This document shows, piece after piece, positions 7,978 to 63,261 of a DNA stretch of 64,000 nt. The notes under the pieces were generated by a model, which did no database searches, had not been told where the DNA came from, and worked only from the letters and a program-made list of their open reading frames with translations. The translations under genes were made by a program, and so were the position numbers. Positions within the stretch are counted from its first letter, which is position 1; every line of letters starts with the position of its first letter. Origin of the DNA: Reyranella sp. GTDB taxonomy: Bacteria; Pseudomonadota; Alphaproteobacteria; Reyranellales; Reyranellaceae. The stretch is taken from assembly GCA_029946105.1 (NCBI GenBank), contig JAQSDW010000202.1:8645-72644 (forward strand), written 5' to 3'.

Positions 7978-10926
7978 GTGCAGTCCATGGCCTTGACCGG
8001 CGATCGGGGGACATGGCGCTCGACATGGGGCTCGGCATGGAGCCGATATGTTTCATTCGGCACCGGCATCGTGCTGATGCTGGCGGCTTATGGCCTCGTG
8101 AGCGCAGCCGTGGTCGCCGTCATCCTGCTGCAATTGCGGTCCGACACGATCGCCGCCAGCTACAACGTCCTGACCGCCTTTGCCCAGCTCAGCGACGAAC
8201 AGACCACGCGCACTTTCCAGAACGTCGAAGAGGCATTGGAGACGGTCGAGGCGGCTCTCGTTGCCATGCCGCATTCGGGCGTTGACGGCACGAACGACGT
8301 GCAGGACGACCTGCGCCGGCTGATCGCCAGCCGGCCGTTCCTGAGGTCGATCACGGTCCTCGACGCCCGGGGCCGCGCCGTCTTCAGCAGCGAGAGCGCC
8401 ATCCCCGGCATGGAGCTGTCCGATCGCGCGTACTTCGTCGAAAGCCGGGACAAGCCGCGCGCGCGGTTCCAGATCGGGGTGCCGATCCGCGCCCGCACGA
8501 CGCAGGAATGGATTCTCCCCGTGACGCTCGGCCTGCGCGGGGCCGGCGGTGAATTCGCCGGCGTCATCGTGGCGTCCGTCAATCCGCTCTTCTTCGATCG
8601 GGTGTGGACGGTGGAAAAGACGATCAAGGGTCAGGCCACGGCGCTGTGGACCGCCGGCGGCGCAATGGTCATGCGCAGCCCCTTCGTCGAGAAAGCCATG
8701 GGCGCCGCGACATTCAGCCCGGAACTCATGCGGCGAACGAACGCCGGGAGCATCGAAGGCACCTTCGCAATCGTCAGCAACGTCGATGGCGAGCGCCGTC
8801 TGCTCGCCTACCGCCGTCTCGCCGCCTTTCCCGGCTTCATCATTTCCGTCACCCAGGCGCTGGACCAGGCGCTCGCCCCGTGGCGGCACATTGCCCGGCT
8901 CGCCGCCGCCGGCTGGGCGGTTTCACTGGCGACCCTGGGCGCACTCGCGGTCTGGCTGGTCGTCGAATGGAATGCGCGCCACGCCGAACGGGATCGCTAT
9001 CAGACGTTGTTCGACGCCAACGCCTATCCGATGGCCGTGATCGACCGCGACACCCGCCGCTTCCTCGCCGTGAACGATGCGGCGCTTCAGCAGTACGGCT
9101 GGTCGCGGGCCGAGGCCCTGTCGATGCGCGCCGACGACCTCTACCTGCCGGAGGATGTCCATCATCAGCGGCCGGCCGTGCGGCCGGGCAGCGAAGTCGA
9201 TCGGGCCCGGTCCGTCAGCGGGCACAGGCACCATACGAAGGACGGCACGATCATCGACGTCGAGATGCAGGCGCGTCCGATCCGGTTCGGCGACGTCCGG
9301 GCGACGCTCGTCATCACCCGCAACGTGACCGAGCAGGTGCGGGCCGAGCGCGCGCGTCAGGTCGGCCTGGAGGAGTTGCGCCAGTCGCAGGAGCGTTATC
9401 GCACCCTGTTCGAAGCCGCCCCCTATGCCGTGATCGTCTCGGACCGCGACTCGCTTCGCCTGCTGGCGGTGAACGCAGCGGCTGTGAATCTCTATGGCGG
9501 CACGCGGGACCAGATGCTCGGCATGACGGCCGACGATTTCTACCTGCCGGAGGACCGCGCGGCGCTGCCCGCCCGCCGCGCCGGCTACTCGGCGGACGTC
9601 ACGCGCCACTTTACCGGCATACGGCACCGCAAGTGCGACGGCACGACCGTCTTCGTCGACATGGCGGTGCGCTTCATCGACTATCAGGGCAGATCGGCCG
9701 CGCTCACGATCGTCGCCGACATCAGCGAACGACTCCGCCTCGAGGAGGTGCGCGAGGCGACGGAGGACCAGCTGCGCCAGGCGCAGAAGATGGAGGTCGT
9801 CGGCCAGCTCACGGGCGGCATTGCACACGATTTCAACAACCTGCTGACCGTCATCCTCGCCAACGCCGACGAGGTTCAGGAGGAGGTGGGCCTCGAGCCC
9901 CGGGTGAAGGCCCGCCTCGAGCAGATCGCCAAGGCGGTGCTGAGGGCGTCCGAGCTGACGGGCCAGCTGCTGGCCTTCTCGCGCAAGCAGGCGCTCAATC
10001 CCAAGCCGACCGATCTCAACGAGCTGGTGGTGTCGACCGGCAAGCTGCTGCGCCGCACGCTGGGGGCGAATCTCGAACTGGTCGTCGACCTGGCCGACGA
10101 TCTGTGGATGGTCGACATCGACCGCGCCCAGCTCGAGACCGCCCTGATCAACCTCTGCGTCAACGCCCGCGACGCGACGCCCGACGGCGGCAAGCTGCTG
10201 ATCCGCTCCGAAAACGTCGCCTGGAATGCGCGCGCCCTCGCCAGAATCCCTGATGCCGAAGCGCGGGACTATGTAAGGCTGAGCGTCGCCGATACCGGCA
10301 CCGGCATGCCGCCGGACGTCCTGGCCAAGGTGTTCGAGCCGTTCTTCACCACCAAGGACGTGGGCAAGGGAAGCGGGCTCGGCCTCAGCATGGTCTACGG
10401 ATTCATCAGGCAATCCGGCGGCACCGTCGGGATCGACAGCGAAGTCGGCCGCGGTACCACCATCAGCCTGTACCTGCCCCGCAGCGATCGGCAGGCGGAG
10501 GTCGTGCAGGCTCTGCCGGCGCCCAAGATGCCGGGGGGGAGCGAGCGTCTCCTCCTCGTCGAGGATGAATTGCAGGTGCGCCTCCAGGTGGCGGAGCAAC
10601 TGGCGAGCCTGGGCTACGACGTCACCGAGGCGGCCGATGGCACCGCCGCCATCGCGGCTCTGGAAGCCGCAACCAGGCCCTTCGACCTGATGCTGACCGA
10701 CGTGGTCATGCCCGGGCCGCTGAACGGCAAGGCGCTGGCCGAAGCGGCGGCGCGCCGCTGGCCGGGGACCGCCGTCGCCTTGATGTCGGGCTACGCGGAG
10801 GGCACCGAGGCCGTCGGGACCCCGGATCACGTGGAACTGTTGGCCAAGCCCTTCCGCAAGCACGACCTGGCGCAATTCGTACGCCGGGTGCTCGACGCCG
10901 GGGTCCGCGGCCCCCGGGCACGCTAG
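7978..10926 (+). CDS. Hybrid sensor histidine kinase (TM-Cache-TM, 2 PAS, HisKA, HATPase, REC)
   Basis: H-box [12 protein letters not shown]-box [38 protein letters not shown]; start codon approximate. Confidence 0.92.
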
Positions 10927-15205: not shown

Positions 15206-15250
15206 CTCGCTGCCCTGCGCCTCCGTCCTGTCAGCCATGCGCATTTGAAG

Positions 15251-15606
15251 TTGCAGGTTCAGCAGGAAAATGCTAGGAATTTTGGTAGGCTGGCGCGGGG
15301 ACCGCGTCAGGCAAGTCCCAAGGCATGACCCGCCCGCGCACGCCGCGGGTACGACGCAATTGAGCGTGAGGGCGAAGCCCCCACAGGGAGCAGTCACGCT
15401 GCCCTGTGAAGTCCCAAACCGAGCCCGTCCCAACCGCGCGCCTGAAAACGACGCCGGAACAGACATTTAGAGACGCCCGAGTCACGGGCGCATCCGGGCT
15501 GTGACACGCAAGAAGAAGTGGAAGTCGAAAAAAGCCCGTGAAACCGGGCTCGGCGCGAAGTCTGTCACAACCGCGCGCACAACATTTGTCACACGTTGGT
15601 GTGCGC
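15251..15606 (+). repeat. Dispersed non-coding element, copy E1
   Basis: 5' motif TTGCAGGTTCAGCAGG...ATTTTG; 3' heptamers at 15563, 15575 (degenerate) and 15587, then an inverted degenerate copy at 15600. Confidence 0.7.
15528..15550 (-). terminator. Probable intrinsic terminator for the leftward HAD/lpoA transcript
   Basis: Hairpin AGCCCG-N6-CGGGCT followed by a T6 tract on the minus strand. Confidence 0.55.
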
Positions 15607-15657
15607 CTGTGCGGGCCGATCTGCCCACAAACATTGGCTTTCCGGCGTGCGGGAAGC

Positions 15658-16398
15658 TCAGGAAGACGTCGGGGGTTCCTCGACCAGTTCGCCCAGCCTT
15701 TTGATGATGCGCGTGGGCTGGGCGGTGGCATGTGCCGGCACGCCGGCGCCGAACGGGTCGTACCAGATGCCGCACATGCCGAGCTGCTGCGGGGCCACGA
15801 CCTCCCATTCGTAGTTGTCGCCCACCATCCAGGCCTCGCCGGGGCCCACGCCCAGCCGCTCGAGCGCGTGGCGGTAGACGGCGAGCTCGGGCTTGCCCTG
15901 GCCGAACTCGCCCTCGATCTGGATGTGGTGGAAGCGGTGCGCGAGCTCGAAGCGCTCGATCTTGGCGCGCTGGGTTTCCGAGGCGCCGTTGGTCACCAGC
16001 GCCAGGCGCACGCCGGCGTCGCGCAGCGCATCGACGGTGGCATGGGCGTCGGGATAGAGCCGGTATTCGTTGCGGCGCAGTTCGGTGAAGGCATCGGCGA
16101 TGCGGTCGGCCAGCGCGTCGTCGGGGCGGCCGAGCTTTTCCAGGCCGCGGCGGACGGCGAGCCGGCGGGCGCCGGGGATATCCAGCCGCCACTTGGCCGC
16201 TTCCGCGCGGTCGCTCCAGAAGGCGCGGGCTTCCTCCATCACCGTCGTGCGCACGCGCTCGATGGCCTGGACATCATGGGCGTCCAGGTGCGCTGCGAAG
16301 ACGTTGAGCAGGCGCGTCCATGCCTCTTCCGGCTGGGCGTAGGCGCGGATCAGCGTGTCGTCGAGATCGAACAGGATGGCCTTCGGGAGCGCCGCCAC
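15658..16398 (-). CDS. HAD family hydrolase
   Basis: FDLDDTL, LVTNG, GQGKPE, MVGDNYEWEV. Confidence 0.9.
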   Translation of the reverse strand: MAALPKAILFDLDDTLIRAYAQPEEAWTRLLNVFAAHLDAHDVQAIERVRTTVMEEARAFWSDRAEAAKWRLDIPGARRLAVRRGLEKLGRPDDALADRIADAFTELRRNEYRLYPDAHATVDALRDAGVRLALVTNGASETQRAKIERFELAHRFHHIQIEGEFGQGKPELAVYRHALERLGVGPGEAWMVGDNYEWEVVAPQQLGMCGIWYDPFGAGVPAHATAQPTRIIKRLGELVEEPPTSS

Positions 16399-46531: not shown

Positions 46532-46630
46532 GTATCGCCCTCCTGTGGTTGGATTTTGGACCGGGATGGCCGGGGACGCACGCTCCTCGCGATGCAGGCA
46601 TTGCAAGCATCTAAAAGCCTGTAGAAAAAG

Positions 46631-47067
46631 TTGCAGACTCCGCAGGATATGTGCTATATTTCTGCTATTGTCGCCACGACGTGCATCTACTGCAGGGCCG
46701 CCCGGTTCAGAGACCCGGAGCGGCCTTTTTGGCGACCAAACCATAGCCAGCGCTTTCCGGGGACCCGGTCTGCGCTGGCCCGAACCTTAGACCATGCCCC
46801 GGCCGGCGCATTCGCCGGCTACACTCCAATCGAGGAGGAGGGGCCGTCCCGCGGTCATGTGCCGTGCGTAGCAACGAATGGCTGCCCTCGCTGGAGACCG
46901 TCCAGTGGCAGGGTGGACCGAAGGCGCGAGAAAACGTGTCCCAATAGGGGTTTAGACGGTCTGCTGCGCCCCCAAGACTGTCAGGGCGGACCGCAGGTCG
47001 ATGTTCCGATGTCACACGCCCCTGTCACAGAAAATGTCACAACTTGGTGTGACACTCCGGTGTGACA
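46631..47067 (+). repeat. Dispersed non-coding element, copy E2
   Basis: 5' motif TTGCAGACTCCGCAGG...TATTTCTG; TGTCACA at 47010, 47023, 47035; inverted TGTGACA at 47048, 47061. Confidence 0.7.
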
Positions 47068-47085
47068 CCGGGCGGGCGGCGGTCG

Positions 47086-62109: not shown

Positions 62110-62523
62110 ATGAACATTCAGCCCTATCTGTCTTTTGAAGGAAAAGCCCAGGAGGCCATCGACTTCTACAAGAGCGCCGTCGGCGCCGAAGTGAAGGTCG
62201 TCATGCACTTCAAGGACGCGCCGCCCGAGGCGCAGGCCCAGATGGCGCCCGGTATGGGCGAGAAGGTCATGCATTCCTGCATCAAGATCGGCGATTCAGA
62301 CGTGTTCCTGTCGGACGGTCGCTGCGGCGGCAACGCGAGCTTCTCGGGCGTCACGCTCACGATCAACGCCACCAACGATGGCGAGGCAGATAAGCTCTTC
62401 GCCGCGCTCGGCAAGGGTGGTCAGGCGACCATGCCGATGGCCGAAACCTTCTTCGCCACGCGCTTCGGCATGCTGACCGACAAGTTCGGCGTCAACTGGA
62501 TGGTGCTGAACCCGAAGACCTAG
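62110..62523 (+). CDS. VOC/PhnB-like protein
   Basis: QPYLSF.G...A..FY, VMHS, MP..ETFFA..FGM..DKFGVNWM. Confidence 0.9.
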   Translation: MNIQPYLSFEGKAQEAIDFYKSAVGAEVKVVMHFKDAPPEAQAQMAPGMGEKVMHSCIKIGDSDVFLSDGRCGGNASFSGVTLTINATNDGEADKLFAALGKGGQATMPMAETFFATRFGMLTDKFGVNWMVLNPKT

Positions 62524-62572
62524 GCCGGCCGCGGCACTTCGAAGCCATCGACGACTAACCAAGGAGAGAGCG

Positions 62573-62986
62573 ATGCAGATCCAACCCTACTTGTTCTTCG
62601 ACGGTCGTTGCGAGGAGGCGCTGGATTTCTATAAGGCCGCGGCCGGCGCCAAGGTCGAGATGCTGATGCGCTTCAAGGAGAATCCCGACCGCGGCAAGGG
62701 CGGCATGGAACCGCCGGGCGCGGACGACAAGGTGATGCATGCCGCCTTCAAGATCGGCGACACCATGATCCTGGCGTCGGACGGCAATTGCACGGGCAAG
62801 CCCAAGTTCGACGGCTTCTCGCTGGCGGTGAGCGTCAAGGACGAGGCCGAGGCCGACAAGACCTTCGCCGGGCTGGGCGAGGGCGGCGAGGTCAACATGC
62901 CGCTCGCCAAGACGTTCTTCTCGCCCAAATTCGGCATGGTCCGCGACAAGTTCGGCGTCAATTGGATGGTGATGGTCGGGACCTGA
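62573..62986 (+). CDS. VOC/PhnB-like protein (tandem paralogue)
   Basis: QPYLFFDGRCEEA..FY, KVMHA, MPLAKTFFS..FGMV.DKFGVNWM. Confidence 0.9.
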   Translation: MQIQPYLFFDGRCEEALDFYKAAAGAKVEMLMRFKENPDRGKGGMEPPGADDKVMHAAFKIGDTMILASDGNCTGKPKFDGFSLAVSVKDEAEADKTFAGLGEGGEVNMPLAKTFFSPKFGMVRDKFGVNWMVMVGT

Positions 62987-62991
62987 GAGGT

Positions 62992-63239
62992 TTGCAGGTT
63001 CAGCAGGTTTATGCTGGTATTTCTGTCATGATGGGAGACGCCCGCGGGAGAGATCCGGCGGGCGTTTTTCGTGGTCCATGGGTGCCCATTTCGACTGCCG
63101 TCGCCGGACACTCATGATCGAATGTCGCCGTTCTGGATGGCACACCCGGTCATCCGCCGATTGTTCCGTGCGATCAACGACTTGACCAGGGTCCGTGGCA
63201 CAACGAGTGGCACACATCGTGGCACAACGAGGTGTGCCA
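62992..63239 (+). repeat. Dispersed non-coding element, copy E3
   Basis: 5' motif TTGCAGGTTCAGCAGG...TATTTCTG; TGGCACA at 63196, 63208, 63220; inverted TGTGCCA at 63233. Confidence 0.7.
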
Positions 63240-63261
63240 AAAAGCAGCCCTTGCGTGTGCG

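Follow-up and report, generated by a model that had tools for sequence, protein, structure and literature searches.

Dispersed non-coding elements of a Reyranella genome as probable gene-less derivatives of phage-type terS cassettes

The 64,000-nucleotide stretch of Reyranella DNA analysed here (the window; positions 8645 to 72644 of contig C202) contains three intergenic elements, E1, E2 and E3, which share a promoter-like 5' motif and end in an array of phased heptamers. These elements belong to a family of promoter-headed, array-tailed modules which, as sequence comparison shows, includes versions with an open reading frame (ORF) predicted to encode a phage-type helix-turn-helix (HTH) protein resembling TerS, the small subunit of terminase. 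The explanation that we favour, with moderate confidence, is that E1 to E3 are gene-less derivatives of phage-derived terS cassettes, comparable to miniature inverted-repeat transposable elements (MITEs), and that their arrays are TerS recognition sites of the pac kind. The window's own genome (G000) is a 5.62-Mb draft of 242 contigs with 65.7% G+C, and the genus comparison covered 18 other Reyranella species, including the uncultured congener G004, a metagenome-assembled genome (MAG). Labels beginning with C denote contigs of G000, and labels beginning with L denote loci in relatives, metagenomes or IMG/VR. A literature search returned nothing relevant on such elements.

An earlier sequence-only reading of the window had described three dispersed elements, and direct reading confirmed that all three are present on the + strand, with 5' motifs that agree between E1 and E3 at 27 of 34 positions and are identical over the first 16 bp. 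A degenerate form of this 16-mer, TTGCAGNYTCMGCAGG, has three exact occurrences in the window, all on the + strand; allowing up to two mismatches gives five matches where 0.61 are expected, and the two extra matches (at 1407 and 49499) are not elements. Throughout G000, 38 sites fit the 5' motif with at most one mismatch, and about 50 do so with at most three when a -10-like box is also required, while control patterns gave zero to one match per genome. TGKCACA-type heptamers form 18 clusters in the same genome. Defining a core site as a heptamer, six nucleotides ending in GG and an inverted heptamer, we found that nearly every core site in G000 is preceded by the 5' motif on its own strand at a distance of 214-700 bp, and motif and array are paired about 25 times genome-wide. 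Most core sites without the motif are found where contigs end, suggesting that assembly broke off within repeated copies. Homology between copies, seen both by BLAST and in alignments, reaches beyond the ends to span the whole length of these non-coding elements (250-440 bp). The E1 type alone has 17 copies in G000, whose length, measured from TTGCAG to a terminal hairpin (GGCTYTCCGGCGTGCGGRGAGCC), is constant at 399-435 bp. In all, the family comprises about 45-50 copies in G000 and about 59 in G004; that there would be many had been anticipated from the three in the window. The repeat family is real and of common origin, and with both ends found together genome-wide in fixed orientation and spacing, the possibility that they co-occur by chance alone fell away. 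Two more members lie on C202 outside the window, at C202:106517 and C202:124546; one is a class-C head and the other is an E2-like 3' module with its terminal hairpin, ending at C202:124945.

In the long copies of the family, the same promoter-like motif and leader appear to drive an HTH protein of 127-180 amino acids (aa). The ORFs on C16 (127 aa) and C129 (162 aa) are each followed by TCAAGGACTTGG and a TGGCACA array, the 150-aa ORF on C218 has the 3' end CCGGACA-TCTGGACA-TCTGGACA..GTCCGG, and the metagenome loci L280 and L281 again show promoter, leader, HTH ORF and array. Phased short repeats in or beside the terS-like gene were present at C129, C16, C218, L280, L281, L306, L308 and L311. 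Short and long copies of the same class coexist in the genome, ORF-less TGGCACA copies with the cassettes on C16 and C129, and GGACA-type copies with those on C218 and C139. The sequence-only reading had proposed a search for long copies that enclose a recombinase, Rep or HUH gene. Long copies were found (C129, C16, C218, L280/L281 and operons in G004), and what they enclose instead is TerS-like HTH genes and terS-terL(-portal) operons, with no recombinase or transposase gene in or beside any long copy examined. Replication iterons, another early suggestion, gained no support, and the suggested non-autonomous element or satellite-origin relic came closest to the present result in its phage or satellite derivation and missed it in its recombinase or Rep character. 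Directly after the C129 cassette, outside the window (C129:18950-19150), lies a sequence resembling a thiamin pyrophosphate (THI-box) riboswitch (CTGAGA...ACCCTTTGAACCTGATCCGGGTCATGCCGGCGAAGGGA). Cassette and riboswitch are neighbours in at least five metagenome loci as well (L303, L304, L305, L307 and L309), so this copy looks old and vertically inherited.

The long-copy proteins match PHROG 4044, annotated as 'terminase small subunit', with E values of 1.8e-28 and 3.3e-25, and their homologues belong to PF20901 and come almost all from Reyranella; Pfam scans of the long-copy proteins themselves were weak (E 0.016-0.09). On all seven IMG/VR contigs inspected, the TerS-like relative lies directly upstream of an ORF of the size of TerL, the large terminase subunit, and usually overlaps it, and three of five downstream ORFs scanned match Pfam families of large terminase subunits. 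An AlphaFold model of the TerS-like protein was obtained with a pLDDT of 81.5. A TerS-like profile gave 18 matches in G000, corresponding to about 17-18 paralogues, 15 in G004, one in G010 and none in 28 other relatives; the elements are carried by precisely the two genomes that are rich in TerS-like matches.

Longer versions are found in G004, where the promoter-like motif heads terS-terL pairs at L336, L337 and L339 (the TerL at L336 matches phrog_2 with an E value of 7e-44), and where one copy, 6.8 kb long, also contains portal-like and gp14-like genes and has ATTTCTGGACA arrays at its end, immediately before a convergent gene. An E1-type array is present in the region after TerL at L339 and on C71. 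The TerL type of these operons is more widespread than the TerS-like family, and the single TerL seen in G000 (C138:28856-30220) is an orphan at the end of a contig, lacking an upstream terS. G004 has five copies of one TerL type, and at each of the four loci inspected (L336, L337, L338 and L339, on G004:C25, C101 and C50) an E-type promoter and a terS-like gene stand upstream; most of these loci are orphan pairs without downstream head or tail genes.

Alignment of E3 and three sister copies (C138, L020 and L052) with the ORF-bearing copies C129, C16 and L280 showed the two groups to be collinear at both ends. The 5' collinearity covers about 110 bp, namely the promoter, GATGGG and the terminator-like hairpin of the leader, and the 3' collinearity covers about 150 bp, with a relic of the ORF end (GGACACTCATGATCG in E3), a solitary TGGCACA (at 63138), the TCAAGGACTTGG motif (which reads GATCAACGACTTGACC in E3, at 63172-63187) and the array. 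What E3 and its sisters lack relative to the cassettes is the ORF, of about 470 bp. Judged by these alignments, E3 is an ORF-less deletion derivative of a terS-like cassette. Compared with C129 and L280, the terS-like ORF on C16 (C16:24644-25027, 127 aa) has lost about 35 internal codons in frame, and it may represent an intermediate towards the ORF-less copies.

For E1 and E2, shared ends and the existence of hybrid copies point to a similar origin by internal deletion or replacement of cargo. E2 is modular, with a 5' module of about 150 bp (promoter and terminator-like leader) that recurs at C54, C142, C155, C196, C225 and C235, followed by a 3' module, about 290 bp long, that stands elsewhere behind other heads, a gp14-like ORF (C58) or a truncated terS (C34). 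The body of E2 has no recognisable terS remnant, and the link of E1 and E2 to the cassettes is weaker than that of E3. The gp14-like contig C58 was considered as a prophage, and this was rejected because its neighbours are ordinary host genes. A further type of array (CCAGACAA CT CCAGACAC ... TGTCAGG AGT TGTCGGG) was observed at C218:27400-27480, directly upstream of an E2-type 3' module, which makes two tandem arrays with no promoter head within 800 bp. E1 shows homology over its full length, at 67-75%, to at least eight copies. The notion that its body is a relic of the region after TerL was rejected, as the match is confined to about 58 bp at the array end.

Comparison of the arrays shows a pattern of change expected of DNA that is read by a protein. 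In an alignment of 16 E1-type sequences, the five pairs of the array helix have no one-sided change and have double changes in 3, 6, 2, 0 and 0 sequences, respectively; GCACA:TGTGC covaries with GGACA:TGTCC, GCCCA:TGGGC, AGACA:TGTCT and TCACA:TGTGA. The direct heptamers, which do not pair, change together with the helix. Paired changes alone, with the direct copies changing in step, argue for double-stranded DNA sites read by one protein and not for an RNA stem, and to this extent the heptamers behave as the protein-binding sites they were first taken for, with double-sided changes only and no wobble. Further heptamer classes include CCGAACA/TGTTCGG in G000 and GGACA/TGTCC, GGGCCCA, GGGCACA and GCGGCACA in other Reyranella. 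The middle and inverted heptamers of E1, initially regarded as degenerate, instead form a second class, with GCGCACA (15575) and TGTGCGC (15600) as pairing partners, and the same is seen in sister copies. A strand test based on G-T versus A-C mismatches in automatically found arrays was discarded, being swamped by false arrays in GC-rich DNA.

The 5' motif is probably a promoter, because it sits where the long copies must have one. Its TTGCAG agrees with TTGACA at three of six positions. Housekeeping promoters of Alphaproteobacteria follow the pattern TTGACGS-N10-14-GCTANAWC, which we take to be matched by the element head, TTGCAGG-N14-GCTAnnAW; the sigma70 promoter proposed at the outset was not called by a simple E. 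coli-type scan. In many copies, E1 and E2 included, conservation reaches 20-45 bp upstream of TTGCAG in the form of one of three motifs, and the AGCCATGCG class to which the upstream motif of E1 belongs is found 5' of the -35 box in other copies, including those of G004 and other Reyranella MAGs. Directly after the promoter-like head comes a hairpin that often has a T-run; that of E1 has none, while many sister copies have a terminator-like hairpin with one. In a related test of 22 sequences, the E1-type consensus folded at -34.0 kcal/mol on the + strand and at -20.3 kcal/mol on the - strand. The 5' and 3' terminal hairpins of the E1 type carry many one-sided changes from G-C to G-U (+ strand) together with compensatory changes, and this tolerance of G-U with compensation reads as a signature of + strand RNA. 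In Rfam searches of the window only a tRNA-Arg scored above the gathering threshold; E1 and E2 gave nothing below an E value of 0.5, and no family matched the elements even at E up to 10. A hairpin within the promoter spacer (AGCNN..NNGCT) was judged too weak, with a complementarity of 3.47 against 3.36 for shuffled partners.

Comparisons between genomes show the copies to be insertions that lie mostly between convergent genes. E3 is flanked by a PhnB/VOC-like gene and an aminotransferase gene and is absent at this site in 10 relatives; in the closest of them (aminotransferase 90% identical) the site is empty and the two stop codons overlap (GCCTAG), leaving no spacer. In five further pairs, filled in G004 and empty in G000, the copies lie in 20-60-bp spacers between convergent genes, and in the cleanest pair the copy begins exactly at TTGCAG (..GGCCTGAG/TTGCAGG, with the stroke at the junction). 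The downstream gene converges on the element in 38 of the 45 copies for which a simple, crude gene caller could call one. Both filled and empty sites, which the sequence-only reading had proposed to look for, thus exist. Together with the comparison of ends, in which no terminal inverted repeat joins the 5' head and 3' end of E1-E3, they support its description of a non-autonomous element with asymmetric ends.

The family has a narrow distribution. The promoter 16-mer has 26 matches in G000, 59 in G004 and zero to one in other genomes; among the 18 other Reyranella species, the 16-mer family occurs only in G004 and is absent from 17. Neither E2-like sequence nor the TGKCACA core was found in any of these 18 species, BLAST of E2 against 30 relatives returned matches only in G000 itself, and BLAST of E1 and E2 against 72,556 plasmids returned none. 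Near-identical copies occupy different sites in G004 (L015, L017 and L023). A 16-mer scan of databases of genome contigs and viral contigs, where most matches at such a size are due to chance, revealed the same architecture in other Reyranella MAGs. An IS110/IS1111 bridge-RNA element was rejected for want of co-distribution with the family: IS110 (PF01548) genes occur in 11 of 20 relatives without relation to element presence, and none adjoins a copy. A link to the PF13366 nuclease was likewise rejected, as G000 has no match to that family.

From these comparisons, the complete form of the module would consist of a housekeeping-type promoter, a leader with hairpin or terminator, a TerS-like HTH gene and a 3' phased array of two or three direct heptamers and one or two inverted ones, sometimes with terL, portal and further genes after terS. 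Copies arrived as insertions in short spacers between convergent genes, and internal deletion or cargo replacement would have reduced some of them to little more than their two ends. By analogy with phages, the array most likely serves a cognate TerS-like protein as its recognition site on double-stranded DNA, whether pac-like or operator-like, and there would be a separate paralogue to read each heptamer class (TGGCACA, GGACA, TGTCACA, CCGAACA and others). The promoter is probably still active, yielding a short terminated leader RNA from E2 and E3 and a structured RNA of about 370 nt from E1.

Several findings count against a descent from terS cassettes with TerS-read arrays. A protein of the TerS type has no means of its own to cut and paste DNA and does not account for the spread to about 50 sites. 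In the fold search no match reached an E value of 0.001 or below; the best-probability PDB match was Sf6 gp1 (probability 0.92, TM score 0.33-0.46, best E 0.15). The G000 draft assembly contains no TerS-bearing copy with a TGTCACA or CCGAACA array, the classes of E1 and E2, and the body of E1 has no recognisable terS remnant, the short array end described above being all that matches the region after TerL. A simple E. coli-type sigma-70 scan called no promoter in E1, E2 or E3, and no target-site duplication was seen in the five filled/empty pairs, in which the flanks are only about 80% identical between species. Finally, a heptamer array lies near terS in only one of 21 phage and metagenome relatives (L323), which leaves the TerS-array analogy resting on the Reyranella cassettes themselves. 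At this IMG/VR locus (L323:3436-3525), four or five TGAAACA/TGTTTCA heptamers were observed about 500 bp upstream of the terS homologue.

A rival explanation is that the elements are moved in trans by a recombinase or transposase reading the heptamer core, with the terS-like genes as mere cargo. The 7-6-7 inverted repeat with its accessory direct repeats does resemble the core of a tyrosine recombinase or the attI of an integron, conservation extends to the asymmetric spacer with its final GG, and the cargo varies between constant ends. Such movement would also fit the occurrence of near-identical copies at separate places in G004, the existence of both filled and empty sites, the patchy spread within the genus and the contigs that break inside copies. 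We nevertheless consider it unlikely, since the long copies examined have no such enzyme in or beside them, IS110 genes vary without relation to the family, integrated copies contain a whole core instead of attL and attR halves, terminal inverted repeats and visible target duplications are lacking, and the many heptamer classes per genome would need as many enzymes. A different proposal, which we find somewhat less likely still, is that the elements are paralogous genes for small or medium non-coding RNAs, regulatory or protein-sequestering, that share one regulated promoter and include the heptamers in the RNA. The hairpin and T-run leaders directly after the promoter-like head, the constant length of the E1 type (about 400 nt), the greater structure of the + strand and the G-U-tolerant, compensatory hairpins at both ends favour it. 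It is at odds with the lack of any Rfam match, with a heptamer helix free of G-U changes whose non-pairing direct copies co-change in a way that no RNA hairpin explains, with the occurrence of the same ends around protein-coding cassettes, with the nature of E3 as a deletion product and not a designed RNA gene, and with the absence of the elements from closely related species. That the three elements are alike by chance, or are ordinary unrelated regulatory sites without a common origin, is scarcely credible. The negative promoter scan and the abundance of short GC-rich repeats in G000 would suit such a view, which is already refuted by the full-length homology among many copies, the excess of motif matches in the window over expectation, the low counts of the control patterns in whole genomes, and the strict mutual orientation and spacing of the two ends.

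A more far-reaching idea can be put forward, though it is speculative and we think it rather improbable. A radiation of about 15-18 TerS-like specificity subunits, the orphan terS-terL operons and the dozens of arrays, each headed by a promoter and seeded between convergent genes, may together constitute a domesticated or selfish system of distributed pac sites. A terminase would then start packaging, or cut, at defined chromosomal addresses, and the whole would form an addressable platform for DNA transfer resembling a gene transfer agent or lateral transduction, with the ORF-less elements as its cis sites.

Known systems offer partial parallels. The pac site of P1 has 4+3 hexamers inside pacA, SPP1 has pacL and pacR boxes at gene 1, and the R-sites of lambda cosB adjoin Nu1. 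The Reyranella cassettes likewise have phased short direct and inverted repeats in or right beside the terS gene, and the family of their protein occupies the terS position in phages. Unlike in phages, most Reyranella copies have no terS and some 50 are scattered over the chromosome, each with its own promoter, and pac sites are bound by TerS and cut by TerL for headful packaging, a role for which the Reyranella arrays are candidates. With MITEs the elements share their short, non-coding and multi-copy nature, their insertion polymorphism and an origin by internal deletion of a longer coding element of which both ends are kept, but they lack terminal inverted repeats and visible target duplications, and the parent encodes TerS-like HTH, TerL, portal-like and gp14-like proteins instead of a transposase. 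Staphylococcus aureus pathogenicity islands and other phage-inducible chromosomal islands also carry a phage-derived terS and its cognate recognition site apart from a full phage genome; these are islands of 5-15 kb, whereas the Reyranella elements measure 0.25-0.8 kb (up to 6.8 kb), show no integrase, replication or repressor genes and occur in dozens of copies per genome. Integron attI sites and tyrosine-recombinase cores have two inverted 7-bp sites around a short spacer and two upstream direct copies, an arrangement shared by the Reyranella arrays, but the latter have no associated integrase or cassette arrays and are unrelated in sequence to GTTRRRY. Like repetitive extragenic palindromes (REPs), their mosaic elements (BIMEs) and the REPIN-RAYT systems, the elements are intergenic, multi-copy and often located between convergent genes, but they are not simple palindromic units and they carry a promoter head.

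Phages, gene transfer agents and satellites are the usual setting of small terminases, which are not known as a family of 15-18 paralogues spread over a chromosome in single-gene cassettes of 0.75 kb, and still less as the apparent source of a MITE-like swarm. Nor does a chromosome-wide radiation of TerS-like genes with private arrays and gene-less offspring seem to have been described. The reading of DNA by small terminases has long been a weak point of packaging biology, and if the arrays are TerS sites, they would provide a natural set of matched protein-site pairs with which to study it; the genome, or a parasite of it, might also use them to fix the starting points of packaging or transduction. 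Should the arrays have another function, the family would still be a clean case of a proliferating bacterial repeat that strongly prefers the spacers of convergent genes and has filled and empty sites available for study.

The features of the three elements are collected in Table 1. E1 had been given an end at 15606, which is corrected to 15658; the additional sequence of about 50 bp contains two further conserved hairpins, and the 3' tail abuts the stop codon of a convergent gene (ORF 15658..16398, - strand).

Table 1. Features of E1, E2 and E3, in positions of the window
Feature	Position	Strand	Description and basis
E1 upstream conserved motif	15231..15250	+	TCAGCCATGCGCATTTGAAG; read directly
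E1 promoter-like 5' motif	15251..15280	+	TTGCAGG, 14 nt, then GCTAGGAA
E1 5' hairpin	15287..15312	+	AGGCTGGCGC...GCGTCAGGC; alignment and consensus fold
E1 body	15313..15562	+	conserved non-coding blocks and stems (CCCGCG..CGCGGG, CGCCGGAACAGACA)
E1 heptamer array	15563..15614	+	TGTCACA 15563, GCGCACA 15575, TGTCACA 15587; spacer CGTTGG; TGTGCGC 15600, TGTGCGG 15608
E1 3' tail	15615..15658	+	small hairpin GGGCCGATCTGCCC and family-wide terminal hairpin GGCTTTCCGGCGTGCGGGAAGCT (15636-15658)
E2 upstream conserved motif	46594..46611	+	TGCAGGCATTGCAAGCAT; class TGCAGGCAGTGCCTGCAT of other copies
E2 promoter-like 5' motif	46631..46664	+	TTGCAGA, 14 nt, then GCTATATT
E2 leader	46665..46782	+	nested hairpins ending in GGCCGCCCGG..CCGGAGCGGCC and T5, terminator-like (about 46696-46733), then stem CCAGCGC/GCGCTGG
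E2 3' module body	46783..47005	+	starts with AACCTTAGACCATGCC; 89-95% identity to 6 other copies
E2 heptamer array	47006..47073	+	TGTCACA 47010, 47023, 47035; spacer ACTTGG; TGTGACA 47048, 47061
E3 promoter-like 5' motif	62992..63025	+	starts 5 nt past the stop codon of the upstream PhnB/VOC-like gene
E3 leader	63026..63080	+	GATGGGAG, then terminator-like hairpin ACGCCCGCGGGA/TCCGGCGGGCGT and T5; collinear with the leader of terS-like cassettes
E3 remnant of cassette 3' region	63081..63195	+	alignment with the C129, C16 and L280 cassettes
E3 heptamer array	63196..63245	+	TGGCACA 63196, 63208, 63220; spacer ACGAGG; TGTGCCA 63233; A-run

Some minor observations concern the E3 site and its surroundings. 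A run of N at C41:13840-13950 in G000 falls exactly where G004 has an E3-type element, which makes the filled or empty state unreadable there. In three relatives (G003, G006 and G007; loci L027, L029 and L033), the spacer orthologous to that of E3 is filled with unrelated REP-like hairpins (GTCATCCCGAGC...GCTCGGGATGAC), so it appears to be a recurrent landing or retention site for different repeats. Upstream of E3, at 62110-62986 of the window, are two tandem PhnB/VOC-like paralogues of 137 aa each that are about 51% identical, and relatives mostly have one PhnB/VOC-like copy before the aminotransferase gene.

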